Positions 12,760 to 49,400 of a DNA stretch of 64,000 bases are shown in pieces (the first letter of the stretch is position 1; each line of letters begins with the position of its first letter). Source of the stretch: Callorhinchus milii (taxonomy: Eukaryota); NCBI RefSeq assembly GCF_018977255.1, contig NW_024704742.1:19594001-19658000 (forward strand), written 5' to 3'. The notes beneath the pieces were generated by a model, which did no database searches, was not told where the DNA came from, and saw only the letters and a program-made list of their open reading frames with translations. A program made the position numbers and the translations under genes.

Positions 12760-12780
12760 GGAATTACCTACATTGGAACG

Positions 12781-18119: not shown

Positions 18120-18272
18120 TTAGATAATTATTTGGGAAGGATAGGTTTGCAGGGCTATGGGGAGAGAGCGGGGGTGTGGGATTGATTCGGATAGCTCTTT
18201 TCAAAGAGCAGAGACAGACACGATGGGCCGAATGGCCCCCTTCTGTGGTGTATAATTGTATGATTCTATGAT
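18120..18272 (+). mobile_element. CR1 LINE 3' end
   Basis: gatgggccgaatggcc..cttctgt..gattctatgat terminus. Other CR1 ends near 85(-), 24795(-), 31660, 35690, 47787(-) and 52229(-). Confidence 0.75.
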
Positions 18273-21410: not shown

Positions 21411-21544
21411 CAATCAACAGAAACTTTAGGCCAAGGCTGATACTCCAGCGTAGGAGAAAGGATTGCCAGTAGTTCGCCCAGTGTCTGAAGCGTTTCTTTC
21501 AAGAAATGTTTTGGCGAGTGTGAAGTAGCTGCCCCTGGTTACCA

Positions 21545-23327: not shown

Positions 23328-23418
23328 ATTATCAGGACACTGCTGACGTCATTTCCTGTGCATTACATGTATGAACGCTATGCACAGCGTTGTCAGCAGT
23401 ACTTCTCATGCACAGCAG
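23328..23418 (+). CDS. Candidate extra coding exon (phase 0-1)
   Basis: ctacttccag|...cagcag|gtaagt (consensus donor); IIRTLLTSFPVHYMYERYAQRCQQYFSCTA; joins 24495 or 25344 in frame. Confidence 0.4.
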
Positions 23419-24494
23419 GTAAGTGCAGCCCAGAGAAAGTGAATGTTTTCACGCTCACTTATAACACAGAGGAACCTAGATGACCACATTATAATGGGGT
23501 TGCCCTGCAGTGGACACTGCATGACACATCCAAAAGATAGGGACCCATTAAAGTGTGCGTTCTTTGTGTATGTGGAGGTGGGGAGAATAAAAAAGTCCTC
23601 GCCTTTGTGTTGTCACTACAGGTACAAAGAGCAGATATTCATTCATTGTCACATATAATGATGGCCAGGTAATAGATGGTTGGTTAACATGCCAGGGAAA
23701 GCACAAACAGGTACGTTCTGTCTCTGAAGAAACATACAAACAATGAGACTTTCTGTACTGTTTTGGTTTGTTCTTACCTGTGTGCTTAAAGGAACATGTT
23801 GATCCAACATTCTGCCATTTATAACTTAGCTATTCTCTTTCTTCTTCCTCCTCCCACTAGACAAAAGCAGTAGCTTGACTGACAGATTCTTTGAAGTGCT
23901 TTTGCGCATTCAAATTCCACCACATTTTCCCCCTCTTCCTACATTTACAGCACAGAGAGACTTTAACAGGAGTGATGGTGGGTAATAGCAATGTGGTACC
24001 CACCTGGCTGAGCCACTGGAGTTTCCTTCCTGCTCTTCTCCAATTGTCTCTCCACCGCTCCTGAAGATCTTGATATCCTTATGCAGGATATACTGGATAA
24101 ATATACTGCATATATCCTATACTTAATGTGTGAAATTGCAAATTCACAAGGTCAGTTTGGATGAAGAGGATCCTTAAGCCCATCTGATTTCAAAGTGAAA
24201 GAAATAAAGAGAACCCTGTTAAGCCTTTGCAAGTTTGGCATAACTCATACTTTGCATAAGTCATATAAAATGCATGGTCCCAGCTGATATGACTTATGTG
24301 AGGTTCAATGTACTCGTCTAAAAAAAGCAATAAAAATGCAACTTTAAAAAAAATTGACCTATTTAGTAGAGGTTTATGTGGAACCAAATTACTCTATGTT
24401 ATAATGATTTCTTGTCGTTCCATATTATGCATGCGGTATTGTATCATTAACTTATATTATTTATGATATAATAACTGGATCAATTCTATTTTAG

Positions 24495-24665
24495 GAGTGG
24501 GATCAGAGTCCTGGAGGCTAGCCGATGGTGAAATCAAATTCTGGGAGCTGAATTCGACCTGGGAACAGAATGAGGAACTTAACAAGCAGTTAGAATCCTA
24601 TCTTTCACTGCATTCCCGGGACAAGGCCAACATAGCTGAAAAATTCCTGTTTGTTCAACAAAACC
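24495..24665 (+). CDS. Candidate extra coding exon upstream of the LDLa exon
   Basis: ttctattttag|...aacc|gtaagt; 171 nt, open, phase 1-1, in frame with exon 2; VGSESWRLADGEIKFWELNSTWEQNEELNKQLESYLSLHSRDKANIAEKFLFVQQN. Confidence 0.5.
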
Positions 24666-25343
24666 GTAAGTGGAAACCAAGAGTCAGGAGCAGAGTTGGG
24701 AGGTGAGGCCTTTGCAGATGGGCATGGAAACGTGATGCTTCATTGAGCATCAATAGAGTATCAAAGTAGTTTCAGAAGATAAGGATCGCAAAGGAATAGA
24801 ATACATTCAGAGGTGGAGGCCATTCAGCATGTTGGACCTGTGCTGAATGTCATCCACTAGAGCTAGCTAAACCATTCTCAATTTTGTGTTCTTCCCTCAC
24901 AACTTTTTATATTGTTCCTCTTCAGATACTTGTCCAGCACTGAAGGCCCAAATGTTTTGACACCTCTGCTTTATGAGATTACATCCTAACTACTCACTTT
25001 TCAGACATAAAGACCTGTGTTTCAAACCAATTTTCTAGCCTCTGTGCAACTCCAAACACAGCAGAAACTCAGTGAAGCACTCGTCCAACTTCTTAGAGTT
25101 TATGTGCCTCCATTACGTGGCACCATGGGTTGCTGTTCCAGTTAAATTTTTCATTGCATTATTTCTATTTGATAATCTTACTGTGTTGTACTACAACACA
25201 CAGTCACTCCACTTCACAGTAAATCCTGTGAAATTCTTTGGGAAGTCTACCTGACATGGGAGGCACTACACCAACTGCAAGGATAATTACTGGGAATTTC
25301 TCTGGCAAGTGTTTTTTTTCTTACATGGATTTTCTTCGTACAG

Positions 25344-25493
25344 TTTCTGCATCTGAGCTGAACGAGCAAAAGGTTCAAGTGACCTGTCCTCAGGGATACT
25401 TTCCATGTGGTAGGCACTCCATATGCTTGCCTCAATTTCTCCACTGCAATGGTGTGGACGACTGTGCAAACAATGCTGACGAGGATGACTGCG
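25344..25493 (+). CDS. rxfp1: RXFP1-like exon 2: LDLa module
   Basis: cttcgtacag|...tgcg|gtacga; [49 protein letters not shown], 6-Cys LDLa pattern; phase 1-1, 150 nt. Confidence 0.93.
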
Positions 25494-28400
25494 GTACGAA
25501 TATAATTTTACATCTTTTCTGTTGAATACTTCAAGATATAGAAGGCATAGTTTTTGAAGACCAGGTTTAGATGCATTATAACATTTTTGAGTAATATCCT
25601 TCATTGAAGTAATTTAAATGTGATTGACCATAGAGGTTAAAGTGATGAAGTGAGAGATAAATTAATCTGTGTTAGTGCTGTCCTAATTTACAATCCATTG
25701 CTTCAACCGCAGCTTCCAGCATTGAGTCCTGCTGATCGGGACTCACCACCCTCTGTTTGAAGAAGTTCCTCCTAAATTCCCTGTTACTGCTGGCTATCTT
25801 ACATTCACTCCATTTTAAATCAATTTAACTATCTGACCTGCAGATGCTGCTGCCAATCTTTCTGCAGAAATTATTAACATTTCAACAGACTGTATTAAAA
25901 TACCAAAGGTTGGGTCAGTGAAGGATGAGACCAGAGTGTATCTGTCAGCTTTGCAACAAATCCTCAGTTAATGAGAACATAACAATATGTAGGACCAGAA
26001 AAGACAACTGCAGTCCAGAAGATAAATAAGTAATTTTATGTATTTCTTGTCTTCAATGTTTTAATAAGGTCTTCTCTTCACCAGTGTAAATATTCCCAGT
26101 TTCTGCAGCCTCTCATTATAATTCTGATGCAAATTGCAACTATTAATCGCTTTGCCCTGCGCTGTACCACCATATCTCCAAGACTTATACAGCCTTGAAT
26201 ACCACATCTCAGGTTTTTAAAATAAATGAAATGATCTCTCCCTCCCATTTGTGATTGAATCTTATATTAACACCCCATTATCGCCATAGTATTTCACCCA
26301 CAAGGAAGACCACCTGTCGGCCTCTCAACTTTCAATGTGTGACATAAGTGAAACTGCGAGTCCAATTAGGGTCTTAAAGTATGTGTTTACGAAGTAGTTT
26401 TAAAAAACTGTAGAAAATTGGGGCTCGGATTTTATAACAAGTGAACATTTTTGATTGCAGAAGACTTCAGCGGCTGGTCTAAGTCTTTCGAAGCATATAT
26501 TGTAAATACATGGACATCCGAATTTCAAACCACATTGAAACCATGTAGTAAGTCTCGCCTGTTAATGTATACTTATTTTGAATTGATTCGTGACCCATTA
26601 CGTTAACAGCATTCAAGAATTAATGTAGCTTTGGACTATATTATTAGTAGCTTTGGAACATTAAAAATTCTAACCTCACTATACTCAGTATCACATTTCA
26701 CAGGTCATCATGAGGGCTGTATTTTGATCATGTTAATTCTAGGGAAATCATAGATCCGTCAAGGGTAATATGTCAAAAGGCATAGAAATCTTGGTGAAAA
26801 TCATGAAACCACATATCTAATGCTAGTTTCTTGTTCTTTCCTTTTATCCTTTCATTTGGGGATTTTTGGCCAGGACACTGGAGAAACTCCCTTCTCTTTT
26901 TGAATAGTGACATCGGATCTTTAACATCCACCTGATCGGTTCACCACAAGCACTGCACTAGAGTGCCATCTTAGACTACGTGCGTTCAAGTCCCAACATG
27001 GGGTTTGAACTCACAACCTTCCGACTCAGATGAGAGTGCTATCAAATGAGCCTGTAGTAGATTAATACAGAAAAATGCAATGTAATGAGATTTGGCAAAG
27101 AAGGGCTAGGAGTTCATGCCCAAAATTGAAGACCTGGATGTCATCGGAGCAAATAAGAAAGACAAAACGGGACTAGGAAATTAGGGAGAAATTTTTCAGT
27201 AAAACAAATAGCACATCTGGCGTAACATGAAGTACCAAAGATTTCAAAAAGGAAAGGAACAAGTTCCTGGAAATCAAAATGCTTAATAGCCTCCTCACCA
27301 CATTGTGAATCCAACAAACCCACTCACACAGATTGAGTCAAACAACCTGTGATTCTGCTTTGTTGGATTCAGGGTTGTTAGGTGATGAGATAACGGGAAA
27401 AATCACAAATGCTTTTTTTTTCACATTCGTCAAGAAACATTAAAATTTCCCATTGGATTTGGAAGCACTATTCCTTTCCCATCCCCCAATGACTTCTGCA
27501 CAATGGTTGGGCCCCAAGCCAGTCCAAACATTTCAGTGCTGCTATTTTTGTTGCCGAAACAGCTAGTGGTTGCCATTGTTGTTATCAACACCATTTCAGT
27601 GCCAATTCACGTGATACCAACCTAATTCAATCTGAACTGACAGTGCCTAAGAGTTAAGTCATCACAAAGGTTACCTGGGGGAGACACACTTCATGTCCTG
27701 AGGTACCTTTTATGATGCTGTTTTCCCAATATGTATTTTTTCAGCTCCAGTGCCTCAGATAACCATGCACCTCCTGGGCATATACCCTTCAAACTAATTT
27801 AGTCTCACCTCTCAGACAATAAACTGACCTCCCCAAGAAGAAGAATATTGGGTTCTTGTAGTCAACTTGAAAGAGTGAAGGTCTGTGTGGCAGCACCGCA
27901 ATTCGAATGAATCTCAAGTACCACAAACGGATCTCAAATACAACTGGGATGCCGCAAAGCCTTTCCAGAACCACCAATTGCTCGTCCAGGCAGAAGAGGT
28001 CATTTGGGAGAACTGTCCCTCTTAAAATTTATCACATAAAACAAAATGGTGAAACTGGCACTGAGGTGAAGGTTAAGGAAGGATTTTAAATCAATGTTGA
28101 AGGGTATCCATAAATAATGACTCTTTGGCGAAATTACGGAGCTTATGTAGTTAATGAAAAAGGTCAGAGCTCCTTAAGACAAAATGCTGTTTCTGTTTTT
28201 GCTGTTTCTATGACTAACATCTTCTAGGACTTTCCTACGGTGTTGGTGGTGGTGGGGGGGGGGGGGTGGAAATAAGGGTGGGTAAGGTCCCCCTCTCCTT
28301 GGAGCTGAGCTGCCTCCAAGGTGACATGCGTGGCAAGGGAATATCGGGATTGAGCCAACCCTCTGGTCTTGATAGTCCGGTTCCAGAGATAGGCAGGTCT

Positions 28401-31400
28401 GCAGTACTCCAGGCAGTACACACAGAGTCTCCTTGGCTCCACATTGAAGTACTCGGCAACTGAATGTCGGAATCGAGGCCACCCTCTGTGATGGTTTCAG
28501 TAGCCCAGTTCTTGAGTGAGGCAGGTCAACAGCATTCCAGAGCACTGCTGTTGACAGTCCATCCAGACTGGTCCATCTGCAAAATAAATTGCTGTTATTC
28601 CTGCTGCTGCTGTTGGCATGCATTCTGAAGAGTTTGTAATAAATGTTGTGCTGTCATCCTGTGGGGCCCAAATGGTTTAACAGCAGCTTTCATCTTATTA
28701 TTTACACTCAACCTTCTTGACTGTAATGTGGCCTGTACTGTGTGTGCAACTCACTTCATTTCTTATGACAGCATAAGAACAGCAGTATTGATAGTGTTAC
28801 GGAGGAAATGCACTCACAGCCTGACTATTGCCATAATAACTCTTTCTAGGCAGCTGCAGAGACATTGCACATTTGATCATTGCATTTTGATTGTTGTTAG
28901 AGAAGGACACCATTATAACGGCCCCCTAGTGATGGGGGTGGGGTTGGGGTGGGACGGGAGACACACAGTAAGCCTACGTAGAGGGGAGGAGCAGAGGAAT
29001 GGGGCAGGAGAAGATCGGAAAGATAGGAAGGTGCTAAGGCCTGAAGAGAGTTATAGGTGAAGAATGTAAGAACAACAACAAATTACATTTGCATAATGCC
29101 TTTAATTTGTCGCAAAGGAATGGATGGTTAAGGATGTAAAAACGATTCTGGTTTAATTAACTTATATCATCTTCCATTAAGTTTTTTAATTACTGTTTTA
29201 TGATGATTTTTCACTAATTGAGTGCTGAGAACAAATCTGCAACTACCATTAGAACCCACAATGTGTCTGCATTGCAGAAATTCCAATCTTACTCCTACCA
29301 ATGATTTGTGTCTTTAATTTGGCAACAGGAGACTTCTAGTCACCAATACTGGGAAAGTATATCATTCCCCAGCACTAATCGACCTCAATACACAACATAT
29401 CAGCAACAAATATAAAGTTAAATGTTTTTCTTGAAAAAAACTATTTAAGATTGAAAATGGGAAAGACACAGTAATAAAGTGGCCTAATGTTAGAGGACTA
29501 GGCTTGAGGGTGTTTTGTACTACAAAAAGTTATTTTCTGGAGGTGGAGAGTGCGCATTTTACCGCACTTCAGGAAATCAGCAGGATAAATGTTAAACAAA
29601 TAAAATGACTTTTAAAAGCAACACGTAAAATGTATCTCTACTTAGATATATATCTTAAGTAAAATGTATCATTTACAGATATTTCTTTGAATGGGCATTA
29701 AACCAAGTTCTCACTTTCTACAAACGTATTTGCAATACAAAAGCCTAGACTGTGAGTTCCAAATCCCGATGTGGGACTTAAACCCACAACCTTCTGACTT
29801 AGAGGAGAGAGTGCTATCAACTGAGTTAGGCTGAGACCTCTTCCGTAACACCTAATACAGCAGCTGCTATCCATTTGGAAAGCTTGAAATTTCCAACATT
29901 TGGCCCACAAAATATACAGTCAAATTCACTTAACATTATACACTGTGAAGCGCTTGGAGATGTCTTGAAGACGTGATAAGGAGCTATATCAAAATGCAAG
30001 GATTATTATTATTATTTTCGTTTTACATTTACACGTGAGTATGTGTCGTCAGATAAATGATACAATCATGTCACACGCATAAGCAAAACCATTCAAAGTT
30101 GTCTTTTCAATCGCCCAATACTGAAATAACAGGCCAGAACCTGGGAGACTTGCCTGATTATCAATATCGACTTAACTTCCTCCATTTTCTCCCATTTACA
30201 CTACATTACACGTTAGTTCTCTGCAGTGTCAAACTTACATCAGCAGGTAAAATTAAAATGTAAAAGTGGTATAAAAGTATATTTGTTTTGTGAACCCAAT
30301 TCCGATGAATAATATGTTGCAACATTTCTTTTTGTGTAGATCTTGAGTACACGTCAAGGAATGCATGTAGATGCAGTAGCACAGAGCTCAACTGTGATGA
30401 TGGTAATCTGGATACACTCCCTTTTGTGTCAACCAATTTGATACTTCTGTAAGTATAGCAGCATTTGCAATTCTTGTCTTGAAGGCATTTTTGTTTCATT
30501 CATTGCTTCTTCACTCATCTGTGTCTCAACCAGGTCTTTCAAGGACAATAAGCTAACAAAACTTTATCCTGATGGTTTCAGCAGATACCAAAGCCTCAGT
30601 GAGCTGTAAGTATACACATTGTTTAACACACTTGCGTAAAATATGTGGAAATAATGATCCTATTTAACATAACACCTTAAACTTTGAAATATCTGTGGTG
30701 GTATCAGTACTTAGGTTCCTGAGCCACATAAGTCTGCAGTACTCTAAGGCTCCACTGAAAACTAACTAAACAGCCTGTTTTGTCAGCTTAGAGGATAGGC
30801 CCCCATTGAAGATAGAAATTCTTCCCACTCGCCTACTGAAAACCATGAAAGACATAGGAGACAGAATGGTTCCAGCTGGACAAGCAATGGGAAGTTTTCC
30901 AGGAAATGCTCTCATTAGGAAGCGCATTTCACCCACAAAATATACAGTCAATTCACTCTACAGTATATTCTGTGAAGCGCTTTGAGACGTCTCGAAGACA
31001 TGATAAGGCACTATATCAAATGCAAGGATTATTATTATATATATTATATATACATATTATTAAACTCCAGCAGTATCCCGATACAGACTCTGGCATCTCC
31101 AAACCTTGACTCTCACCAACTTGTGTCAAACACTCACCAGAAATATCTTTAATTTTGCTTTCCCGGTGTTGATTTGGCAAGGAGAGTCAAAATCCCTGCT
31201 ATTTATTTGGAAAATGTATTTAGAGCCAGTCTTAGCTTGTAGCTTCGTGAAATGACTGAAATCACACCAGCTCCTTTTCCAGTTAACAAATAGGCTTTTA
31301 ATTCCAGATGTTATACAAATCTTATAAATTTATATTTGTCCATACACAGAATTTAAAATCAGTGAGTAAAAGATTAAGCAAAATAGAAAAAAGGAAGGAT

Positions 31401-34400
31401 TTACCGACAATCTGTTTTGCTTAGCAAAAAGGGTACTCTTTTTCACAGTACAGAAACAATCAGGTAGGTCTCTGTCTCAGTCTCTCTTTCTCTCGACTTT
31501 GTTCTGATCTTCAGACATGCCGTTGTCCCCAAAAGCCTCTCCAAATAAACAGTTTCTGTGGTCGGCTTACACTCAGCAAAAAAGCCTTTGAATTTAACAA
31601 GTCATTGTTTTCAACTTCAGAGAAGCTTCTAAGGACACATTCAGTTATTCAGTTTAAGAATAATCCTCATAAGGGATATGAGGCAAAGGCGGGTATTTGG
31701 AGTTGAGGTACATATCAGCCATGATCTAATAGAATGGCAGAACAGGCTCAAGGGGCTGAATTGCCTACTCCTGTTTCTTATGTTCATGCGAACAAACTTG
31801 CCCATTATCGTCAAGGCAATGACTGTGAAACATCTTAATCGGAACACGAAATCATAGTAACTAATAATAACAATCCTTACATTTATTATAATGCCTTTCA
31901 TGTCTGGAGGATGTCCCAAAGAGATTCACAGGATATATGGCCAAGTGGAAGGACTGTGTATTCTGTAGGGGAAAATTTAAACCTAAGCATGAATATCTTG
32001 GAAAGCAATACCCTCCCGGTGTAGGACTCTGCTGCAGGCTGGGGGGAGGGTGGGGGGGATCACACACAATTTCTGTGTGTGTTTTCACACACAAACTACT
32101 GACACGTAAGGCTTATTATTGTTTTAAATTTGAAGACAAAATGGTCTTCACAGGCTAAGACTAAATAGCCTCTTGTTTTGTGCCACTTTTAGGCAGCTGA
32201 AGCCATTGCAATTTCACATCTTTAGATTTTAAATATTGAATTAATATTATGTATTTTTGTTTCAGGTACTTACAAAACAATCAGATAACAACAATTTCTG
32301 GGCGGGCGTTTAAGGGATTGTACAATCTTACCAAACTGTGAGTATTTGCTTATTGCTGGAACATTCTTTGATCTGAAGGATAACTCAATGTTTTTTGATC
32401 CATAAAAATCAATCTGCTTCACAATTGTGTTCTGTCTTTCACTTTTCCTATTTTCTTCCTGAATATTATAACAATAATTATTAATAATAATAATCCTTGC
32501 ATTTGATATGTATTTCATATCGGGTTGCATCTCAAAGAGCTTCAGAGGATTAGATGTAGAGAAAGGAGACTATTATTTTATTCTTATGTGCATTTGGGTA
32601 AATATTCTGTGTTTTTTCTTGATTACATTTGGGAAATATCTATGCAAAACTTTCTTCCAGCAGATAGAGTGGGTGGGACAGTGTAAGAGCGAGTAGGTTT
32701 TTGTGAAAGGAATGTGAAATTGATGGGCTGAATAAATGTTTCTTGCTTCTTGGAATCTTGTGTTCTCAAAGAGCAAGGCTCTTGAAAAGAGATGCCTCAA
32801 AGGAGATAATGAAACCTCTATATGATACAAAACAGGATTAAAAAGTAAACGAAGCATACTTTCAGATTATTACCCCCAAAGTGCAAAGCAAGGGGGTAGA
32901 ATTTTACTGATGTGAAAGACAATTTAATAAAAATAATAATAATAATCCTTGCATTTGATATAGTGCCTTATCATGTCTTTGAGACATCTCAAAGTGATTC
33001 ACAAAATACACTCTAAAGTAAATTGACTGTACATTTTGTGGGCGAAACCAGCAGCCAATTGCTCACAGCAGTGTCCCACAAACAATCATAGAAAAAGATC
33101 ACATTACATAATCCAGTCAATATATTTTGAGTGCTGTTGCGATGCAGAGAAATGTAATGTAAATGATGTTTCAGACAAATAAATTGGTTTTCTTTCATTT
33201 ACTTTCCACTTCATTGGGAGAGATGTACCATCTTTGATAATTGGATTTCACTTCTGGTCCCAGCCATAGATTTCACTTGACCTGTGAGATATTTCTGCTA
33301 AAAGTATCTTGCAGATATTTCATTTTCAGATCACTATAAAAATCCATTGCATTGCTGTGAGCCTCACTCACGGTGCAAATCAAAAAGAGTGAAGAAAAAG
33401 ACTAAATAGGCAAGATTATATGTTTGTTTAACATGTATTTTTAAGCAGAAAGTATTTGACATTGACAGTATTTTGTCGTCAAATTTATCAACGCATGAAA
33501 GCAGAATTATTCTCCTCTTCCGAAAGCATTTATCAAACTATAGCTGACTATGCTTAGAATGTGATTTTCCCATTATAATTGCCCACCATCAGAGATCTGT
33601 ATGTAAATTTACCAACAAGTGCGGAACAGCCAACCAGAGTTTATAAGAGTAGCAAATGTGAGTGAGTTATTGAGCCAAGTAAAGCAAACTATTACTATAT
33701 GTCAATGTTTCAATACCTTCCTCGTTTATCGTGCTTTGGGCCATTTCCCCTCTCCCACTCCCCCAACCTATCGATACCCACCCCCAACTCAGGCACAAAG
33801 CTTAGACTGTCCAGTGCCTTGGGATATCTTCCCGACGTGAAAGGCACAGTATAAATGTTAATTTTTATTGTATTGTAACTCTTACCTCTCTTCATATAAA
33901 ATAAAATAATAATAATTTCTAATAGTTAGCACCTATAAGACCTTTTATGTTGGGAAGATGTCTCAAAGCGCACCATGAATTGTAATGTAAAATGTGGTGA
34001 CTGTGTGTTTGGTTGGTGAATGCTTATTTTGTAGGTGAATGCAGCAGCCAAACTGTGCAGAGCAATGTTTTGCATTTTAAAATAATTAAATATTTTTGAT
34101 TTGTGTACCAACACTAATGCTGGTGGGTGGTTGCCACAGGATCTGGTTCGCTTACACCATCTCTTGCTTTGTTCCTGTTATGTAAGGGCGCTGAGAGCTT
34201 GTAAAGCCAAGTTAGTCGTATTGTTCTTTTGCCAATTGCGCACATGATATTCCTCACATGATAGAGACAGTTAGTGTTAATTCCACTTGCTTGTGTAATG
34301 CAATTTCAATTCTCGCAAAAGAGAACTGTTTGGACTAGGAAAACAGCGGGAACAGATGTCTAAAGAATAATTAAAGATTATCATCATAAGTCACATTGGG

Positions 34401-37400
34401 CTAAGCTTCAATGCATGCCATTAAATAGCTTTATTAGCAGAGTCTACAGCATACAAAACATGTGCCAAATTTCTGTCTTATTAACAGTGGTATTTTTATG
34501 ATGTGCTCCTATAGGGAAGGGAATGGCTGCCGCATTTCACCCAAAAAATACAGAGTAAATCCACTTTACAATATATTTTGAGAAGCTCTTCGAAACGTCT
34601 CAATGACGTATAAATCTACCAAATGCAAGGATTATTATTATTATCAATAGAGAAGAATTTGAATGAGGTTTGCATTCTCAGACCTAATGATCCAGGTGTT
34701 TCAAATATTATAAGGCACAGAATCATGTAAACATACTCAAACTATCTGGCATGGATTTTTTGAGTGCAGCATGGGAGGACACAAGTTTAATAATAATATT
34801 GACCTTTGGTGCAGCCCCTTTCAAGTCAGGAGGACATCTCAAAGCAATTCACAGGATATGCTACATTATATTATTATACTATATTTTGTAGGCAAATACA
34901 GCATCCAAAACACTGCCTAGAAATGAATGACCTTTTTAGCTGGAGAATTGTTTCCCAGGACATCACAAGAAACTCCCTTCTCTTTTTATATTTTGCTATG
35001 GGTTCTATAATGTCCACCTGACCAGACAGACAGGACTTTGGTTTAATTTCTTATGAGAAGGTTGCACCCACAGCAAGCATTGCAGAGTCAGCCAGGATTA
35101 TGAAAGTTTAGAGTTTTGACGTGGGGTTTGAGTCCACAAACCTCTGACTCACAGGCGAGAGTGCGACCAACTGAGTCCAGCTGACACTAGCTCAGAGGAC
35201 TATGTGATTTCTTCAGGCCAGCATCAACAGCGAAGATGTGGGAATGAATAAACATTCCAAAGTTTTTTCATTCAGTTTGAAAGTAATGCTGTGGAGGAAA
35301 AATAGAAAATGATTTCCCACAGAAAAAGAAATATGTAAAGTAGATTCCTAGGAAAAAAAACAGTGATACAAGAACAATTCAGGACTTCAAAAGAGGACCT
35401 TGATAACTACCCTTCTAGGAGCTGTAATGCTAAGAATTGGTAGAAGTGGACATAAACAGATTTCCAGAAGAGGTGATGGAGCTGGGATGGGAGGATGATG
35501 TGGTGTCGTCATGGCAGTGTGCCAGCATCAACAGTGGAGGTGTGGAATACGTATATATTCCAAAGTTCCTGCTTGATATAATTTTGGAATCAGAGACTTT
35601 CATTCAGATTTGCCTACCTCGGACTGAATGTTCACTTTAGCAGCCAGGAACCCTCTTAAGTGGGATATACGATTTTAAATGGGAATGAGAAAGTAAATCC
35701 AGAACAATTTTTTCCGACTTGCCAGGGCAACAGGACAAGAAGCAAAGGTAATGGTTTGTGCAGGGCAAAATTAGGACAGACACCATGAAATATTTTCTTA
35801 CACACAGGGTAATATCCAGCTTGGACGGGTTACCAGAAAGAATAGCTGAGGCATGATGCTGGACTCATTTAAGATGCAGTTTGATGCTGTTATGGGAAGA
35901 TGTCAGGGTGGATGTTCTGGTTAGATGAGATCAAGTAGACTGAAGGGGCTTGTTCATCCAAATCTCTCTTGTGATTTTGTGAAGCAATTTGGTAGAAGTT
36001 AATATATATTTAAATACTCCATGGAATCACTAATTGATTCATTATTAAGTTTGATCAAATTATCAAACTTGATCAAATATGAAGAACAGTACGCAAGGTC
36101 TTCCATATCCCCAAAATGCTTCCAATTCTTCAATCGAATTTCAAATTTTCACAGCTTTTTGCTAATAGAGTCTATCCACACATGTTCAGTGCATTATTAT
36201 CTGCATTATAGGTCTGAGAATGGAAGTTGTGCTTATAATAATCACTGGGTAACGTAAGGTCAGCTATTAAAAAGTGAATCCCCTGAAAGTTCCTTCATAT
36301 AATTTAACCAAACTACTGCAAATTAAATGTCAGTCCTGAATACCAGTTAATTTGGCCTAATGAGTTTAGTCATCAAAGCACTTCTGACAGACCTGAAATT
36401 TCTCATGTTCTTAAGCTTAAGATTATTGTCTTAAAATGTTAAGACCATGCAGATGTTTGCAAAATAGTCCTAAAATCAGTCAGATTTTGGAAGCCAAGTT
36501 TTTACAGTACGCAAAAGGGAACTGGAGGAAATCATCTTCTAAATTGGCTGAATTTAAGACTGTTTTCAAACAATCGTAAATATTTTGAAAATGATCTCAA
36601 GCCTAAGGAGACCAAAAAAAGTGTTTTAAAACAACAAGGAATGTCAAGAATTCAAACTACAACAACAATAACAGGATTACATTTGTATAGTGCCTTTCAT
36701 GTCGGGAGGACATCCCAAGGAGCTGACACTAGTGAAACTAGTACTCAATAGGCTCCAATGTGTAGTATTCCTTAGAGGGGTAATAAGGAATCTGAGTCAT
36801 TCAAATGGGGAATCCTGATACCCATATGCATGTTCTCCATCTATGTCCGGCCAAAGAAAATTCTAACCGGAATTAATAAATAAAAAATCCATTAAGAAAT
36901 ACTGGACCGCAAATTAAACCCCAATCTTCCCATTGCTACTCATTCTTTTATTTTGATTGAGCCTGTTGAGCCTGTTCCAGTTTATTAGATCTTGGCAGAT
37001 CTTTTAATCCCAATGCCGTGCTATTCCTCCATTCATCTTAACACCTCTATTTCTCTTTTAAACATACTTGCCCTTTCCCTCTTTGTTGGAAGCAATCATT
37101 GAATTGAAGGTAGACAAGGCTGAAAGCAAGTTATAACCTTCATGATTAGAGGAAAGAAGTCAGGCTGACACCTGTGGTAAAGAAATCCTTCCTGATGTCT
37201 GTCCCGAAATTAGTCCTTCACAACAATAACAACAAAATTACATTTCTATCGCGCCTTTCAAGTCGAGAGGACGTCTCAAGGTACTGGACAATCTGCGTTT
37301 CAGACCCGAGCTGGGGGATTGGGATTGGGGATGGTGGAGGGCAGAGGGGAAGGAGGGTGATCAAAAGTACGGTCGAAGAAGAGGGTCTTGAGATGGGTCT

Positions 37401-40400
37401 TCAAGGAGGCAAGGGAGGGGGTAAGGCAGAGGGATGCAGGATGGAGTTCCAGGTGGGGGCAGAGTGACAGAAGGTCCACCTACCAATGGTGGGGCGGGTG
37501 AGGTGGGGGACGTGAAGCAGGCCGGAGATCTCTGAGCGGAGGGAGCAGGCAGGGTGATAGGGGGTTAGGAGGTCCCAGAAGTAGGGGGCATCGAGGCCAT
37601 GGAGGGCTTTGAAGGTAAGGACCAGGATCTTGAACTGTATCCTCTGTGTGATGGGAAGCCAGTGGAGTCAGACAAGGATGGGGTGTTAGGGTCACGGAGC
37701 CTGGTGCGGGAGAGGATACGGGCTGCAGAGTTCTGGATTATCTGCAGGCTATGAAGGGAGGAGTTGGGAGGCCAACAAGCAATGAGTTTCCATAATCAAG
37801 CCTGAATGTTATGAATGCGGCCTGTGGTGTGAGACAGTGGTGGAGCCGAGCGGTGTTGTGGAGGTGGGGAAAAGCAGAGCGGTCATGGCACGGATGTGGG
37901 GTAGAAAGAATAGTTGAGGGTCAAACAAGTCCACCTCGACTCTTTGACTAATGTTGGATACTGACTAATGTTGGATTGAAAAAATTGACTAATTCATCAC
38001 TGGTGATATTATCATGCCATTGAAAATTCTACCTCTTTAGATGGCTAAGGTTGAACTAAGGTGGAGCATCCCCTTCCCCTGACTTTGTGACAATGATTGG
38101 GTTCCATGCCAACTGGCTTACAGCCACCATTGAATGTACCACCCCACGACTGGGCTGTTTTAATGCCACGGCTTTAAAATTCAACTGGAGAAGGGAAAAA
38201 GGCAAGTCAAAAGCAGTCGTAAACCTTAGCTCCATCACCATGCTATAGCACGTAAGGCCATAAAAGCAGCCCAGTGATGTAAGAATAAAATATGCTGAGG
38301 ACGTCAGTCTGCAAACAGCAATTCTTAACCCCACTGTCTACTTCTAAACATCCCAAGGTGCTTCCCTGAGTGAAGGGTGCTATATTAATGCAAGTTGTTG
38401 TTGTTGGTAGGACAGGGAAGTAGGATTGAATAGCCATGCAGACCTCGCAATGGGCTGCATGCCTCCTTATGTGCTGTTAATTCCTATGATTCTACCTTCC
38501 TGAGATAGTCCCAATATATATCAGTGAGCACAAAACAGTCACCATTAACCAAAAAGAGACTTCAGCCGCCACAATTTCCTAAACCTGCTTTCCTTTGTGA
38601 TTACTGATTATTTAAATGCACATGTAGCCATGTGTTTTTAATTTTGCTCTTTTTTTTCATTTGTTTTTCCAAATGATTACTGTGGTAAAATATGATTTGC
38701 ATCTAATTTGTTTCATCCGTGGGGACTTGCCTCAGGGCCTGCAGATTCTGCACGCAGCCACGTAACATGAAAAATCCAGTTAGGTTCCCTTTGACGTTGC
38801 TAGCAAGCGATATTTGTGACCTAGGGGATTAGGGCTTCAGATTAAGGTGTATCTGGTTCCGAACGCTGAACTGAAGCTAGATGCTCGTATTTCTTTCTAA
38901 AATATTTCTTTCTAAAATTCAATACCAAACATTTTTTATAAGGCTAAATACCAAGTTTGTTATATCTATTGGATTGCTTTAGTTATTTACAAAGAGAATA
39001 ATTTTAATAATGAGGCTAGCCACACAAATACATTTATTAACGTTGTTACTAACATTTCCGAGGAATCCAATTGCAAAAGTATCCAAAATTACATTTCGCC
39101 CACAAAATACACAGTCAATTCCCTTTACTACTACTAGTATCCTGTGAAGCTCTTTGAGACGTCTCAGCAACGTGATAAGGCGCTATATCAAATGGAAGGA
39201 CTGTTGTAGGTATTAGTTTGTGTTAGTTTGAGCTGACTATCCACTCTGCAAGGCATGATAACCTGGGAATTTCAAAAGAAATTTATTGCATGAAGTTATT
39301 GGATTTTTTTTCAGTTTATGTTTGAAAGTTCCAGAATTCATTATGATTGCTGCAAAATGACCATACAATTGACATAAGAGGCAGAAAAGCATTTTATAGT
39401 ATTTATTCCCTGTTTTAGAGTGAGCTTTTGAACTTCAGAGTGTGGGAGGGATTCTGAAGGAAAACTTCTAGTGCAGTGAAGTGGGTCAGAATACCATATC
39501 GGTCCACTTAAACAAAGTTGTTTTTCAACTAGCTTTGTTAATCACATGCTGCTTGTGCTCATAATATATCACCAGGGATCAGTACCTAATGCGTTTAATC
39601 TGAAATGCTTCTAGAAATTTAAATTTAAAAAAATTGGGATTGATAAATGGGATGTTTTCATGAGAGATTCAATAATTGATGAATCTGTTAACAAATCTGT
39701 CAGGGAGTCACATTTGAAAGCCAGGCATCAAATTCTGAATTTAAGAATTTTCCCAAATTTCACAATCTTAAATTTTAAGACAATCTTAAAGCTAAAACCA
39801 TGCTGAATTTCAGGCCTCAAGTGTGATCATGGCAATACACAATTATAAACCACTTTTCTTGACTTATCCATATATCCCAACATTTTATTCACTTTCCTTC
39901 TTTGCTGATTATTTCATAGAAGTATGTATTCAAATAGATGTGCATTCATTTGGTGAAGTGATGATAACACATTAAATACAGCTGCAAGTGTGGTTTTCAT
40001 GTATTATCCACACCCTTCCCAAAAAGGTCTACACATTATATATGTAGGAAAAAAACATCACAAAATAGGGGGTAACAATTGTGAAATTTGTGACAATAAA
40101 TGCATCTTTAAAAAGTTTTCTTTCTTTTCAGGTATTTGACTGACAATAACATAACCATGTTGCCTCCAAGAGTGTTTGAAGATCTTCATAGCGTTAAATG
40201 GCTGTAAGTGAATCAATTATTTTCATTTATTTTACTGCCTCTTTAATATACGACAAACTCATACCATTTTACGTTTTACTTTGCGCTATCTACTTAGTAG
40301 CTGACCGTAGAGATAAGTGATGTAATAAATACTGTATGCCTTTCAAATGGCAATGTTCAATATGCTGATTTTTATTTAGAATTGTATTTTTGTTGGAAAA

Positions 40401-43400
40401 CCTATTGATTTTTTTTACTTATTTTCTCAGCAGTGTGTGCTTGTAGTAGACACTCTTTAAGTGCATACCAGTAAGGTTGCTCCTGTTATTGTACTGCTCC
40501 ATAGAATTTCACTTAGAACCCAATCTGTCAAACCTTGTTGCTTGGTGCTGTCATTCCCAGATGTGGTATGAAACTTGTCAGTGTGTCAAAAATATTCTAT
40601 TTTCCTCCGTAAATTTTCTCCCTGAAATTTTCCTTTTTTGAAGGTGTTTTGAATCCCTTTTTCTAATACAAAGGGTTCCACAAGCGCATACCACCGATAC
40701 CTCCCCACAAGTAGCTATTGCAGTAAAGTTCCATTATGACACTGTGGTTAATGTTCATATATTCCTAACCAGCAGTATAATGGAGTGTGATTGCCAGTCA
40801 GTGCTTCCCCATTAGTAATTAATGCTAAGAGTATTACCCCAATCGTGCTGTTGGCCAGGATCCTCCAACCTTTTGAATGATGCCCTATTTGAGAAACTTC
40901 CCTTCCAATTTTAATACCAGAAACATAACGTACCATTTACAGGTTACAGAGGGAGTGGGTTAGCCAGATTCAATGAAGGGGGGTGGGGGAGCATGACATC
41001 AGCATCTCGGAGCAGTTAACAGTCGCAGAGCCTGATGCCGGGAGGAGAGACGGAAGAGGTCCAAGAGGAATGTCTTGAGTCATGATCTGAAGGAAGGGGA
41101 AAGGCAGAGGGATTGGGTGAGAGAGTTCTAGAGTTCCGGGGAGTAGCAGCCCAAAGGACGCTGCCAATGGAGGAACAGTGGGGATGAACGACAAGCAGGA
41201 TGCCAGATTTTGAATGAGAGTTTCAGAGAAGGGGGGCAAAGGCGTAGAGATTTTGGGAGAGTTTCAGAGAAGAAGGGCAAAGTGGCTGAAAGGTTCCCAC
41301 CAATGGTGGGTGTGAATAGTCAGGGGGATGTGACAAGAATCTTAACCCAACACAAAACTCTAGTGGACCACCATTGGGAAATCTCGCCCACCCAGTTGTG
41401 AATAAATAAGAAAAAGCTGGGTCCTGCTCGGGTGTGCTGGCTCAGCTACAGTTGGCTGCTCTCATCCGACATTTACAGGATTTACCTGAGGTCACAGTAA
41501 CATGGAGTTGTGCAACCAAGTTGAACAGAAGGAAACTGAAATCAACATCAGATGTGAGTTAGGAAAATGTTTCCAGTGAATGAGACAGCACGGGCTACAA
41601 AAGTAAAGAATTAAGTGTATGCATCTGTGTGCACTAATGATCGTAATGCTGGCTAAATATTGATACAGTGGGCTGTTGTCTTCACATGTAATTTCATTGG
41701 AGAGCTTTGTATGGCTAGTTCTTGATAAATGTATATCTAGCTTGCCAGTAATTTAGCCTGTGCATGCAAAAACAGCCATAAATCGTTTCTAATGTTGTTC
41801 AAGTGCCATTGAACTTGGGAGACAAAAGAGGGAACACAGAGAAGACATAATGCACCCCACTTAAGCAAAGTTAATGGCTCACTCCCATTTGGAATGCCAA
41901 AGTACAGCTATATACTAGGTTAAATGCTAAGTCCTATGTACAATAAACAGGTTGTAAACAGTCACATGGAACTTGTAACCCATGCATTGCATTCTGACAG
42001 TCCAATTCAATGCTGAGATGTACTGCATGTTTAGAAGTGCCGTCCTTTGGATGAGTTGTTAAACCAAGGTCACCATCTGCCTGCCCAGGTGGACTTCAAA
42101 GATTCCACTATTTGAAAAGAGAAGTGAGTTTCTCCCAGTGTCCTGACCAACAATCCTCCCCAAAATAAAAAATTGTTCACTCAACTCCATGGCTGTGTGA
42201 CATCTAGCTGTGCACAAATTGGCTGCCAAATTCACCCACAAAATGTACACAGTCACACCACTATCTTGTGAAACGCTTTGAGATGTCTCGTTAACATGTT
42301 AAAGCGTTATATCAAATGCTACTCTTTTCCCCAATCACATTCCCAAATTCCTGAAACAAAAACAGAGAAAGCTGGGAAAACTCAGCAGGTCAGGCAGCAT
42401 CTACGGAGAAAGGAAAGTGAGTCAACGTTTCTGGTCCACGACCACGTTCTGACGAAGGGTCGTGGACCCGAAACGTTGACTCACTTTCCTTTCTCCGTAG
42501 ATGCTGCCTGACCTGTTGAGTTTTCCCTGCTCTCTCTGTTTTTGTTTCAGATTCCAGCATCTGCAGTATTTTGTGTTTTTTTCCGAAATTCCTGATTGTG
42601 TACACTCATTAAACCCAACATTATTTCCAATGGAACTCACACATAAAAGAGTTCTTCATCTGATGTCCCATCATTTATTCAAATGTAACATTTGTTTATA
42701 ATTCATTTTTTCAGGCTGATCGAGGACAATAAAATCCACAAGATTGCCATCCACTCCTTCATTGGGCTAGAATCGGTCATGCTCCTGTAAGTTTCTACAT
42801 TGTGCAACAGCAAGTTCAATATTTAACTTAAAGCTTTCATTCTTACTGATGTAAACAGACATTGATGTTTTCTTCTTTGTAGGTCACTGAACAACAACTC
42901 TATCTCTGAGATGCCAGAAGAAACCATTTGCAAAGAGATGCCAAAGTTAATGTACCTGTAAGAATTTCAATATGAATTTTAAACTGCAGTATAACTAAGC
43001 ATTGATGATTTACTGAATAAAATATGTTCATTGTCTCAAGGTCGCAAAATCACAAAACCACAGTAATATGTCTGTTTCACACAGAAAGCAATATACAAAC
43101 TCCATGGCAAGGGCAAAGGGGCTCTCGCCCCCTCTCAAACCCCTCCCCCAACAACCAAACCTACCATTACCCCCCTCCCCCAGAGGACCTGGGTTCAATT
43201 CCCAGGTGGGATGAAACCTTCGGCAAATTTCCTTACTTCACACACACACGCACCTCTGTTCACCTAGCAGTAAGTAGGAATCGGTGGCTAGTCGATTGGT
43301 GGTTCACTTTCTGGTTGTAATAATCCTCCTAAAACAAATAACAATAATAATTTGGTCATTCAATCTATGACTGTTTGTGGCAAATGCAAAGATTATTATT

Positions 43401-46400
43401 ATATATCACCCTTTAAAATAAACTAAAAAGGGATTTTGGCTTTCTTACTAATCTTCTGAGGTTAGTAGATATATTTCCTCACCTTCAATCCATGACGACT
43501 GTTTGTGCGAAATTGACTGTCATGTTTCGCCCACAAAATATACAGTCAAATACTTTACAGTTTATTCTGTGAACCCCTTTAGACATCTCGAAGACGTGAT
43601 AAGGTGCTTTATCAAATGCAAGGATTATTATTATTTATCTGCTGATGTATTTCGAACGTTTATAATCTGGCGTGAAATTTGAATTTCCTAATGTTAACTG
43701 CACCTATCAGTGAAGCACTGCAAATTTCGTCCCAACAAGTGAAGACGTAGGATAAGTCTTAGCGACAAACCAAATAACTTAGATGACATCAAGGCCCAAA
43801 AATGTTTTTATTACAACAGGAAACATAAAAAATAGCTTGCATTTATGTGATACCCTTCACATAAGACAACGTGTCTGAGCTCTTCAAAAGCAAGAGAGAA
43901 GTTGTTTAGGTTGGCATAGTGGCTAATAGATTAAACATACAGATCTATGTACGTGATTGAAATAGCAATACAGAATTAGAAAATACAACAGTCAGGGTTC
44001 TCTCCACTCTCAATGTACAGGTATATAGAACTTTAGCACTCTGTGTGTAAGTGGGTATTGTTCTTTAATCATCCCTGAAATTATTACATTATTCAGGGAA
44101 GAGGGAGGGGAATCGCTTGCATATGCACGTTACCTAAAGGATAGTTAGCAGCCCTAGCGAAACCAATGAAAATGGGGGTGGCTTGGTGTAAATAACAACT
44201 GCGGCTGAATACATGCATTGTCTTTTGTGAAGCTTTTTGTCCGCGATCAATCACAAGGCTGTGTAAGTAGTCAGGCTGTGACTGCGCTGAGATAGGGATC
44301 CATTAAAAGGGTACTGTTTTAATGAAAAACTTGTGCGGCAAACATTTTTTCTCAATTGTTTACAAATGGGCAATGAGGTGACATAAATCGCAGTGAGCTG
44401 TGTTCTTACATCACCTTCAGATAAAATCTTTGTGACGGTAATAACACAGGTCTCTTCTCCCACCCCCAAAAAGAAATGCCAACAAATTGTTTCATGAAGA
44501 GTCTTGTTTAAATGGAGTTCAAGCGCCACCTAGCAATCTGTTATGGTAACTACATATTCAGTTGAGGACTGTATAATCAATAATAATGGCACTCAAAGGG
44601 TAATAATAATAATCCTTGCATATAGCGCCTTATCACTTTGTTGAGACATCTCAAAGCGCTTCACAGAATATATTGACCATGAATTTGTAGACGAAACTGG
44701 AACAGAGGTCAATTGATGAGCTATACATTATCTTCTCCATGAAGCGCTTTGAGACATTTTTTCCTTTTGTTACTCTCCTGCATCAAACGCCACATAAATG
44801 TGCTATATAATTGCAAACAGTTGTTTTTTTTTGTTGGACAAGTCCATTTGGGCTCAGATAACCAAATGGTTTACATACTACCATCTCCTATTTATTGGCT
44901 GTTAATGAGAACTCTTGCTCTGTTCACTTGGTTTAAATTTTGAGTTACAATATATATTTTCGAATTGTTGCGCCTTCCAGCTAGAATGCTGTAGCCCTCA
45001 CTTGAATGTTAAAACTTCCTTTACATTTTGTGGTTCAGCTCTCTGTCACAATGGTTTATAATAGTTTGCTTTAAATAGACCTAGAACGGAAAGCAAATTG
45101 TGACAAATATTTTGAACTTGGCTCAATTATGTGTGTCTTTTTTAAAAAAAAATAATAATTTTAGAACTTTTAATAAGGTTGCTTATTTTTAGATAGAAAG
45201 TGGTCTTTTGGACAGGACATAGAAACACTATAGACATGTGGGGGCGCTGGTGCTGTCATCTAAGTTAATATAGTATATTAATGGGAGCTTATTTCTGTCA
45301 CATTATCAGGTTTCTAACAAGAGAAAGACAGAATGTCTGGAATAAAAACAGCTTTTATTAAAATGACATAATAATGGCAATCGTAAACAAAGTCCCATGT
45401 GCAAGTATAGTATATGACAATTGGGTGCAAGACATTGAGCGAGAGGGTAAGAGAGGGAGGAGGGAGGTGAAAAAGAGTTAGGGTTTCAGTTTTTTTTTAA
45501 AGATAATAATACTTAAACCATAATTGTTTTTAAAGCATAGGAGTAGGCAATTCAGCCCATCATGTCTGGGCCAGTTCCTTTAAGAGCAATCCTTTCAGTT
45601 CCATTTACCTGTCCTCTCCCTGTACCCTTGCAGTTGAATTATTTTATTCCTTATCATGTTCCCTTTTGAAAGCCACCTGCATTCGAATAGTGTCCTTCAC
45701 ATCAGGACAATGTCTCAAATCATTAGGGAGATGGGAAAATTGAGGGGATGAGGGAAATTGGGAGGATGAGGGAAACTGGAAGAATGGGACGTGATTTAGG
45801 GGAATAGGAGGAGATTGGTTTCCTGAGATCCAAATGAATTGTGTTATCGAAAATCTTTAGCAATTGGACAGGAGCTGAAATAGTTTCTAAAATGCTGGAA
45901 AAACTCTTATGCATATTAAAACTAGGTAGGGGTTCTGCAATATTTATGTTCTATTTTTATTCATGCAGATTCAGTTTCATGATTAGAGTTTTACATGATC
46001 TCTATTTTATTTTAGTGACATGGGAATAAACAATATCCAAATTCTGAAGAATACTACTTTCAAGCATTGCAGCATGTTAAGCGTATTGTAAGTAAAAAAA
46101 ACTTAGCACAGTGATTATGGCATTTCTCATGTATTTCTCATGTAAGTGCTCCAGGACACTATCCCGTGTGGAGAGCGCTATATAAATGCAAGTTGTTGGT
46201 GTTGTATTTCACATAGCTTGTTTTATGCTTTTTTAAGCACACCGAGATGGCACCCTACGTGAAAGCTGCTAGGTGAATGCAAGTTGTTGTTGTTGTACAG
46301 TTCTTCAGATGAATTTAGTTTTGTTTCAAGATATTTTATTGACCTTTAGTGCCTGAGTTTATTTGCTTAATATTATCTCATTGTAGTTCAGTTTATCAAT

Positions 46401-49400
46401 ATCAATTATATCTATCTGGTTCCATGTTAAGTGTCAGCTTAGTTCAATAGTTAGCTCTCTCAGGGGGTTGCAGATTGAAGCCCCATGTTGGAACTTCAGC
46501 TTGTGGTCTCAGTTAACCCTCCTGGAGAGCCCTTCTGTCATTTCAATGAGATGTTAAGCCAAAGTGATGCCTGTCTGTTCAAGTGGATGTTAAGGAACCC
46601 ATGACACTATTCTAAAAAAGTGAAGGAAATTTCTCCTGGTGCCCTGGTCAACAATCCTCCAGATAAATTGGTCATTCACCTCATGTTTGTGGGAGATTCC
46701 TGTGTGAAAAATTGGCTGTATTTTGTCTGCAAAATAGTCACTGTACTTTACAGTAATTTGAGATATTTAAACATTCTATAGGATCTATAAAAACACAATG
46801 ATTTGTATTACATTATCTCTCCCAGTGCAGTTATCCACTCTAATCCAATTCTCTCCCCAAATCTTTTAATATTATTTTCCTCAAAAGGAATTGGATAGAT
46901 TCCTTTTTAAATGCTTTATGAACTCAACTTCAACATCCATTTGTGGTGATATATTCCATTCCACATTATAATAATCCGGGTGAGAAAAATCTCTTCCACT
47001 CTTCCCCCTTTTATCTTCTGATTATAATCTTCAATTTCTTGCCTAGCTGATCCGTGGGAATAGTATCCGTCTGTTAAAGCCATTTATAAGTCCAAAGAAG
47101 ATATCAAGGGAATTGATTGGGAGATTCAAGGGGCTTTAGTCTCAATTGTTGAAACTTATCGGTATCTTGGGGACGTGGTGAACACCCAAGTTTTGCCTGG
47201 AGGTTACAGAGACGTCACGGAATCGTACCACAGTAGTAGGAAAAATAAGTAAAACTAATTCCTTCAGGAGAGGAGGATAGAGAAATCAGAGGATAACAAA
47301 TAGTAAACAATAGGATTACCTGCCAGGAAAGTGCATTGTGGCTTTGGCAGGAATTGATATAGTAGCTATGTAACTGAGAATATTAATGGACCTGTACGCT
47401 AACCTGTTTAACATTTCAATTCCTTTCAGTGCATTCAGCGAAAACAAGATCAACATTATACAAGATCATGCTTTCTCAGGATTGCAGAATCTTATAGAAC
47501 TGTAAGTTTTATAGAGTGTAAAGAAATCTACAAATCTTAATTCATAAGATCATCGAGCAGGTGGCAGGTGTAGCAAGCAAAGTACTCTGTTGCAATGATT
47601 AAAAGGAAGGTCATGAGGGAATCTAACCCCATCATTCTTGAGACTGCTGTGTCCAATTTCACAGCAGTACTGACAGAGAGAGATCCGATATCCAAGGTGA
47701 AGGATATCTGTCTGCAAACATTTTGTTCCAACTCAGAAACCCAGTCCAAGATGCATACTCAAAAAGACCATTACGTTTGCAAAAGATCATAGAAACATAG
47801 AATCTTACACCACAGAAGGAGGCAATTTAGCCCGTTGTGCCTCTTTGAAAACGTATCAAACTAGTCCCACTTCCCCCTCTTACATCATAGCCCTGCAATT
47901 ATTTCCTTTTCAAGTATAATAGCAGAAAGAATACGTTCAATTGGTATAGGGAAGCTAATGAAGGAAGGGAAGAAGAAAATAATTTTAAAAGGGGATTTTT
48001 AAATGAGGTGAAGCGAATAAAACTTGAAACAATCCAGAATTTTTTTAAGGGACCATCTATGAAGGCAAAGCCATTAAGAGCTACTGAAGCTAAAGGTTTG
48101 CACTGTGTTCATTGGTTTCATTATGCATAGATTCTCTTTAGTGTCTATTGAGTTTCTCTTAGAATTGTTGTGTTATATTTCACAGAAACTGATATGATCT
48201 TTTTATATGTTTCCACAGGGATCTGTCTAAAAACCGGATACAAGATATCTCTCCCCACTTATTTAAAGATATAACTGAACTTCGACAATTGTAATTTCAG
48301 CATCATTTACAACTACTTACTTTTACTGTTTCATCCTTATAATATCAATGTTGTGAAATATGTTCTAATTAACTGAAAGAGAAATTCACTCTCATTGTAG
48401 CATTTCACAAGACATAAAAGTTGTTACTTTCACACTGGTGCACATTATTGTTGGTACTGTTATGCAAATAGTGTAAGCAGATGCCATCATTATTTCACTA
48501 ACACTTAGAATGGTGGCAATCTGGTGCAAGCTCTTGATAGCATACCTCTTAAAAATATCAAAAACAGGTGCACATTTGCAGAACTGGCACCGTTTCCATA
48601 TTTCACTGATAGTTTGAACACATTTACTGCCTTAATACTTGTATCAGCCTTCTAACATTTAACATACTCCAATTAATGTAAAGCATGCCAGTGGATCTGG
48701 AGATACTGTTGATATGACATTATCCTTACAGTAGGAAGACAAAAGAATGCTGTTGTAAGCCCTCCGAGATGCGTTCTGGTGTGAAGGGCTCTATGTAAAT
48801 GCAAGTTGTTGTTGTTGTAACACTCTTCGGTCTAACGCTGCCCTGCTTCTAGTTTGATTCCAGCATTGATTAGCCGTCTTCCTGCGCTAACCGATGGAGA
48901 GGGAAGAGTTCTGATTCAACAACAATAACAATTTATATTTGTATACCATCTTTCATGTCAGGAGCTGGGGGTGTGGGAGCCAAGGTTGGGTGGGAAAGAG
49001 ACGGTCAAAGAGATAGGTCTTGAAACATATCTTGAATTCTGTCACATCTCCTTCATTGAGTACATATATCACTCACGCCACATTTTGTGGTTTGCTAATG
49101 AATGTGCACAAAGTGATATTAGTGCTTCTTCCTGCGCATAAAACAACAACAACAAAATTACATTTGTATAGCGTTTTTCACGTTGGGAGGACGTCCCAAG
49201 GTACTGGACAGCGTACAGCATTTCAGACACGAGCTGGGGTGAGGGCGGAAGAAGGGAGGGGAGAGGAAGGGGGGTTCGCTGATGGCATGGTCGAAGAGGA
49301 GGGTCTTGAGGCAGGATTTGAAGGAGGCTAAGGAGAGGGCGAGGCGGAGTGACTGGGGGATAGAATTCCAGAAGTTGGGGACAGAGTGGCTGAAGGCTCT

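Follow-up and report, generated by a model that had tools for sequence, protein, structure and literature searches.

The RXFP1 gene in the analyzed window

The window, that is, the whole 64-kb stretch of Callorhinchus milii DNA that was analyzed, covers G000:C1:19594001-19658000 of a 991-Mb assembly. The peptide translated from 25346-25492, in the LDLa exon, is 100% identical to a single protein, the 774-amino-acid 'relaxin receptor 1 [Callorhinchus milii]' (P0001), the entire coding sequence of which was placed by tblastn on the + strand, from 23689 to 58640. The coding region of C. milii RXFP1 lies wholly inside the window, with the exception of the exon encoding the signal peptide. A search with full-length P0001 returned 1395 proteins at E ≤ 0.001, and the best 120 are vertebrate RXFP1 models sharing 58-68% sequence identity. 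Among the 119 other matches listed, 108 are named relaxin receptor 1, RXFP1 or relaxin family peptide receptor 1, 7 bear generic names and 4 are unnamed; the name RXFP2 is absent from all 115 source-named rows among these 119. Judged by match names and identity, the C. milii gene is classified as an ortholog of RXFP1, not of RXFP2. Its domain composition, that of a type C LGR, comprises a single N-terminal LDLa module (PF00057, residues 86-122 of the P0121 model, 28.1 bits for a cut-off of 24.1), with a cysteine pattern that is kept in the ortholog alignment A1, an LRR ectodomain (LRR_8, 98 bits) and a rhodopsin-type 7TM domain (PF00001, listed for P0001). The exons mapped from the LDLa module onwards are as follows.

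25344..25493, + strand: LDLa exon of RXFP1, 150 nt, with a phase-1 acceptor and 13-14 residues before the first Cys
26460..26549, + strand: linker exon 3' of the LDLa exon, placed by tblastn, with approximate boundaries
30339..58640, + strand: remaining RXFP1 exons (LRRNT, LRRs, 7TM, C-tail), placed by tblastn of P0001, with the stop codon directly after 58640
30534..30606, + strand: first 24-residue LRR exon, present in P0121 and P0122 and left out of P0001, the current NCBI model

P0121, P0122 and P0123 share a 90% cluster with P0001, and these four public models of C. milii RXFP1 were compared.

P0001 (RefSeq XP_042195625.1), 774 aa: current NCBI model, starting with MPGKAQT-GVGSESWRL...
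P0122 (XP_007897411.1), 798 aa: older NCBI model, with a start identical to that of P0001
P0121 (UniProt A0A4W3I1K4), 333-aa fragment: starting with MWFHIQFSLVMLVAR-GVGSESWRL...
P0123, 450 aa: 3' fragment

All three models reaching the 5' end (P0001, P0122 and P0121) join a 171-nt segment, 24495-24665, to the LDLa acceptor at 25344. The C-terminal end of P0121 (...SMLSVL, then a stop) corresponds to intron read-through after about 46086. This model looks transcript-derived, because it ends in read-through of an intron up to a stop and because a homology-based method would have no reason to add a non-homologous exon; UniProt A0A4W3 entries presumably come from Ensembl. Both NCBI annotation rounds use another first exon, devoid of a signal peptide, and the junction between the signal-peptide exon and 24495 is therefore unused by the NCBI pipeline. 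Since exon prediction relies on the same criteria as those that led the initial annotation of this DNA to the segment, agreement between gene models is not independent of the sequence signals.

The ortholog consensus contains the LRR repeat encoded by 30534-30606, and the current RefSeq model P0001 may therefore lack LRR1. This exon starts only ~84 nt past the exon at 30339-30449. The models of two assemblies show two amino-acid differences, in 30339-30449 and in 42884-42958 (MPN/MPK LMYL in the latter), which are presumably polymorphisms between individuals. An in-frame ATG (MDFLRTV...) is found in 25323-25343, 21 nt before the LDLa acceptor and inside the 97-codon stop-free frame 25232-25522 that surrounds the LDLa exon; the start it would provide is not hydrophobic and is used by no model. 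A crude LRR regular expression, a tandem repeat scan and a composition profile of the window yielded nothing useful.

The 5' end of the gene

The features upstream of the LDLa exon that have to be considered are the following.

-4735 to -4690 relative to the window (G000:C1:19589265-19589310, L002:5265-5310), + strand: RXFP1 signal-peptide exon, with an ATG, encoding MWFHIQFSLVMLVAR, hydrophobic, phase 1, donor GAG/GTGAGT
23328..23418, + strand: first segment of the initial annotation, 91 nt with frame 0 open between ccag/ and /gtaagt, donor CAG/GTAAGT with a score of 12.6
23689..23710, + strand: initial coding exon in the two NCBI models, encoding MPGKAQT + G, with donor CAG/GTACGT and no signal peptide
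24495..24665, + strand: 171-nt phase 1-1 exon, bounded by ttttag/ and /gtaagt, encoding 57 residues (G-VGSESWRL...FVQQN) that follow the signal peptide and precede the LDLa module

The initial annotation had noticed that no ATG followed by a hydrophobic phase-1 exon precedes the LDLa exon, and had proposed either a novel ectodomain architecture or a fusion with an upstream gene. Within the window the observation holds: scans for an ATG, a hydrophobic core and a phase-1 GT donor gave 2, 6 and 5 weak candidates at three settings, a chance rate (5 upstream on the + strand versus 11 per 64 kb of the minus control strand and 12 in 38.5 kb downstream), and tblastn of 13 ortholog N-termini against the window did not find the signal-peptide exon. 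Two such candidates were discarded, at 23261-23291 (10 residues, donor score 2.7, within a repeat tail) and at 23743-23779 (12 residues, donor score 3.4), both occurring at the chance rate and the real exon being elsewhere. The observation fails beyond the edge. The first 15 residues of P0121, absent in all six frames of the window, have exactly one match in the 100 kb to its left, at C1:19589265, where the DNA reads ggagaATGTGG...GCGAGAG/gtgagtggg (46 nt coding, phase 1, donor score 12.0). This exon is located 4,735 bases to the left of the window, so that it could not be seen by the initial annotation, and the intron separating it from 24495 measures ~29.2 kb. Its last G together with GA at 24495 produces the Gly found in P0121, and together with TT at 25344 it would produce a Val. 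The 125 kb preceding the LDLa exon contain 3 signal-peptide-like phase-1 exons with a donor score of at least 6, and 164 kb of control strand contain 10; the exon at -4735 has the best donor of those 3. When the C. milii signal peptide was aligned with the start of Heptranchias RXFP1 (M.F.I.-FSLV), 159 of 5000 shuffles scored as high, and for Scyliorhinus RXFP1 the corresponding count was 592 of 5000. We conclude that the exon at -4735 to -4690 is RXFP1's own signal-peptide exon, resembling those of the elasmobranchs Heptranchias and Scyliorhinus, and that the idea of a fusion with an upstream gene has no support. Near the edge of a window, the apparent lack of a first exon is no sign of a new architecture. 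As for the public sequences, both RefSeq models of C. milii RXFP1 are devoid of a signal peptide, which the exon 29 kb upstream supplies, and the current one also omits the first LRR exon. Neither the signal-peptide exon nor the sequence near 23.6 kb shows a clear CpG island.

The two open, well-bounded segments on which the initial annotation was built, 23328-23418 and 24495-24665, exist with the boundaries and phases it described, and their in-frame join with the LDLa exon yields the peptide it quoted. Their status differs. The segment 23328-23418, contained in a stop-free frame of 57 codons (23310-23480), is part of 0 of the 4 C. milii models. When the genome was searched at the DNA level with 23230-23480, 40 of 205 candidates were scored; at least 35 of these 40 fall on the high-copy repeat tail at 23230-23285, and 23294-23387 has partial matches to 4 other genomic loci (77-87% identity). 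Protein searches with the 57-codon frame returned nothing at E < 0.4 except the sequence itself, and no Pfam family was assigned to 23328-23418. We also computed a codon score, a log-likelihood trained on the other RXFP1 exons, known exons being scored leave-one-out and intronic ORFs of at least 56 codons serving as null; for 23328-23417 it is 0.004, which is not distinctive. The segment 23328-23418 is most likely a chance pseudo-exon in partly repeat-derived intron sequence. An insertion ahead of the LDLa module, as initially proposed, is thus retained for 24495-24665, which appears in three models, one of them with a proper signal peptide, but not for 23328-23418, given its absence from the models and its repeat matches. 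The retained part was not 'unrecognised' either, as it is already present in XP_042195625.1, XP_007897411.1 and A0A4W3I1K4.

The window also contains LINE fragments (reverse-transcriptase-like open frames) at 14500-16100 and 21580-22450, and a SINE- or LINE-tail motif recurs, as peptide or DNA, at 307-786, 12768-13070, about 22400 and 23230-23285. Read depth is extreme over the LINE/SINE-tail bins.

Properties of the probable 171-nt exon and of the predicted peptide

The segment 24495-24665 gives a 100% tblastn match to the model peptide and sits in a stop-free frame of 79 codons (24467-24703). Its acceptor is weak (score 1.6, for 5.5 at the LDLa exon). With identical splice-score thresholds, 164 kb of control strand contain 3 open phase-1-1 segments that measure 171 nt or more, and the chance expectation for such a segment in the first intron (about 29-30 kb) is ~0.55. 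On sequence alone, 24495-24665 does not stand out from chance. Its codon score (24497-24664) reaches 0.086, compared with a mean of 0.018 for known exons and of -0.101 (sd 0.091) for null intronic ORFs, only 4 of 163 of which attain this value; its codon usage is coding-like, in the top 2.5% of the null ORFs. It is single copy in the 991-Mb genome according to DNA and six-frame protein searches (next protein match, E = 3.1), with no second locus that could be a paralog of the insert. Skipping it keeps the frame (G/TT = Val) and connects the signal peptide straight to the LDLa module.

Sequence reads were examined for the candidate junctions. Six sequencing runs from 2 studies contain the LDLa exon; their type is guessed or unknown and none is recorded as RNA. 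Four of them (X1, X2, X3 and X11) were aligned to 6601-26600. X1 and X3 are DNA-like, their contigs continuing through introns. Among the joints listed, none is a GT..AG joint for any candidate junction, -4690^24495 and 24665^25344 included, and repeat artefacts dominate (3346 joints and 5641 loose ends lie beyond those). X2 provides one contig of 151 letters, at depth 3, which coincides with 25344-25492 except for 2 leading letters that do not match; it hints that the acceptor at 25344 is used and does not indicate the upstream partner. None of the 8 X2 pieces listed falls on 24495-24665, which is not evidence of absence. A direct splice joining the signal-peptide and LDLa exons would be frame-compatible, but all three 5' models place the 171-nt exon between them.

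The 57-residue insert matches none of the 119 other RXFP1 models listed (4 elasmobranchs included) at E ≤ 1, has no Pfam family, and a search with residues 1-180 of P0001 retrieved only P0001 itself among 147 candidates. A comparison of the 56-residue exon peptide with 1.84 billion representatives yielded 4 matches at E ≤ 0.001, none of which attains E ≤ 1e-10. They were rejected as homologs of the exon, being repeat proteins each matched at 4-10 stretches; the best of them, the WD40 repeat protein P0124, aligns several times through a 17-residue motif similar to ...DGEIKFWELNS.... Within the exon peptide, residues 9-25 (LADGEIKFWELNSTWEQ, window 24521-24571) look like a single WD40-blade motif, probably by chance. 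Homologous sequence in orthologs or paralogs, as expected of a conserved coding exon, was not found for 24495-24665. The elasmobranch proteins P0002 and P0003, which possess proper signal peptides, pass directly to the LDLa module (M(M)RF.ILCFS.VVG..VAFNVLEL.RERTGC). Among the 116 ortholog models with the LDLa start motif, at most 35 residues precede the first Cys in 106 and more than 35 in the other 10, which are mutually unrelated and several of which are flagged as low quality or partial. We found no printed account of the 171-nt exon in elephant-shark RXFP1 among the literature matches listed.

The N-terminus was modeled with AlphaFold2 on P0121, using an alignment of 49 orthologs in which the insert has no depth (mean pLDDT 74.7). 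Values are below 50 at residues 1-37, a stretch made up of the signal peptide plus the initial third of the insert, 50-63 for the LDLa module and above 90 for the LRRs. Two helices are predicted in the insert, at 38-54 and 56-76, with pLDDT of about 67-76. Of the extended N-terminus examined by domain search and structure prediction, there remains, next to the missing Pfam family, a helix-like second half, and given the lack of alignment depth this helical look is all that the prediction conveys. The model would describe the insert as disordered in its first third and, with moderate confidence, as two helices in the remainder; over the insert as a whole its confidence is low to moderate.

Interpretation of the N-terminal insert

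We propose that 24495-24665 is probably a genuine cassette exon, specific to the lineage and included at least some of the time. Transcription would start upstream of -4735, with a phase-1 exon encoding the signal peptide MWFHIQFSLVMLVAR and ending at the donor GAG/GTGAGT. In at least some transcripts this exon would be spliced to 24495-24665 and the latter to the LDLa exon at 25344, and the secreted ectodomain would begin with about 57 lineage-specific residues, belonging to no known family, before the LDLa module. Skipping of the exon would yield the standard vertebrate form, in which the signal peptide leads directly to LDLa. As a 171-nt, phase-1-1 unit whose skipping restores the canonical receptor, it can be read as a possibly alternative cassette exon; it may be young and functionally neutral, adding to the tethered LDLa module no more than a passive spacer or tag at the N-terminus. 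The insert is already annotated in RefSeq and UniProt: provided that it is real, a well-known receptor has here a minor variant restricted to one lineage; otherwise the insert is an annotation artefact.

The latter case, which we regard as rather unlikely, would make the 171-nt segment a pseudo-exon of the gene models, the mRNA splicing the -4735 exon directly to 25344 to encode a standard receptor. The frame preserved on skipping would be expected from it, as would the direct passage to LDLa in P0002 and P0003 and the 106 of 116 ortholog models with at most 35 residues before the first Cys; the weak acceptor at 24495, the ~0.55 comparable bounded open segments per about 30 kb expected by chance, and the failure of the homolog search, whose 4 library matches are repeat proteins aligned on a 17-residue WD-like motif, point the same way. 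Artefactual long N-termini are moreover encountered in other Gnomon RXFP1 models, and because these are unrelated to each other and lack a signal peptide, such extensions are often prediction artefacts. Against the pseudo-exon stand the occurrence of 24495-24665 in three models from two sources, codon usage in the top 2.5% of null ORFs and P0121, which looks transcript-derived and pairs the exon with the true signal-peptide exon 29 kb away.

A further question is whether the start chosen by NCBI could be genuine. An internal promoter near 23.65 kb, the ATG at 23689 and a 23710^24495 junction would produce an insert-bearing RXFP1 without signal peptide, a form compatible with the cassette-exon reading but very unlikely in our opinion. 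The same start was selected in two annotation rounds on two assemblies, its donor CAG/GTACGT is strong (score 9.9) and a TATAAT-like motif can be recognized by eye ~35 nt before the ATG. Against this, CpG observed/expected is 0.1-0.3 around 23.5 kb, with no enrichment, the ATG at 23689 opens a frame of only 12 codons if unspliced, predictors typically fall back on the closest ATG exon if they miss the true first one, and a large LDLa-LRR ectodomain without signal peptide is, from general knowledge, unlikely to be found at the cell surface. Gnomon, the gene predictor of NCBI, probably did not reach the signal-peptide exon and used the start at 23689 in its place. Finally, the complete version of the initial annotation, in which 23328-23418 and 24495-24665 are both coding and belong to a new, enlarged ectodomain or to a fusion with a gene further upstream, is hardly credible: the open frame 0, the strong donor (12.6) and the compatible phase of 23328-23418 are outweighed by its absence from all 4 models, the lack of start codon context or signal peptide, the matches of 23294-23387 to 4 other loci next to the high-copy repeat tail at 23230-23285, an undistinctive codon score (0.004) and a true upstream exon that is RXFP1's own.

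RXFP1 activation runs through the N-terminal LDLa module and the linker. A holocephalan RXFP1 constitutively carrying a partly helical module of ~57 residues that alters the engagement of LDLa and linker with receptor or ligand is an option that we consider quite unlikely; if true, this module would represent a naturally occurring variation on the way in which RXFP1 is activated. A real and constitutive insert would amount to a small evolutionary test of the N-terminal load that RXFP1 activation through LDLa and linker tolerates.

Apart from the insert attributed here to a cassette exon, the C. milii receptor has the organization of Heptranchias perlo (P0002) and Scyliorhinus torazame (P0003) RXFP1, with LDLa module, linker, LRRs and rhodopsin-type 7TM domain as defined by Pfam, and it shares 58-68% identity over about 90% of its length with vertebrate RXFP1 (LGR7) of this type. 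A short phase-1 signal-peptide exon of similar sequence (M.F.I..FSLV) and about 12-14 residues before the first LDLa Cys inside the LDLa exon are also common to them, whereas the C. milii models have 57 additional residues after the signal peptide and before the LDLa exon, with nothing similar in the 119 models listed. The MPGKAQT start of NCBI is reminiscent of over-extended automated models such as those of Carcharodon (P0004), Microcaecilia (P0083) and Rhinatrema (P0062), which have long N-termini and no signal peptide; unlike these extensions, the 171-nt exon of C. milii is also found in a model with a proper signal peptide (P0121). A parallel to the proposed arrangement is that of engineered human receptors: according to the published account (PMC6667744), human RXFP1 bearing FLAG, HiBiT, Nanoluc or mCitrine before LDLa, that is, an added polypeptide between signal peptide and LDLa module, still signals. 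These tags are artificial, whereas that of C. milii would be a natural holocephalan exon; a passive N-terminal appendage is therefore compatible with receptor function.
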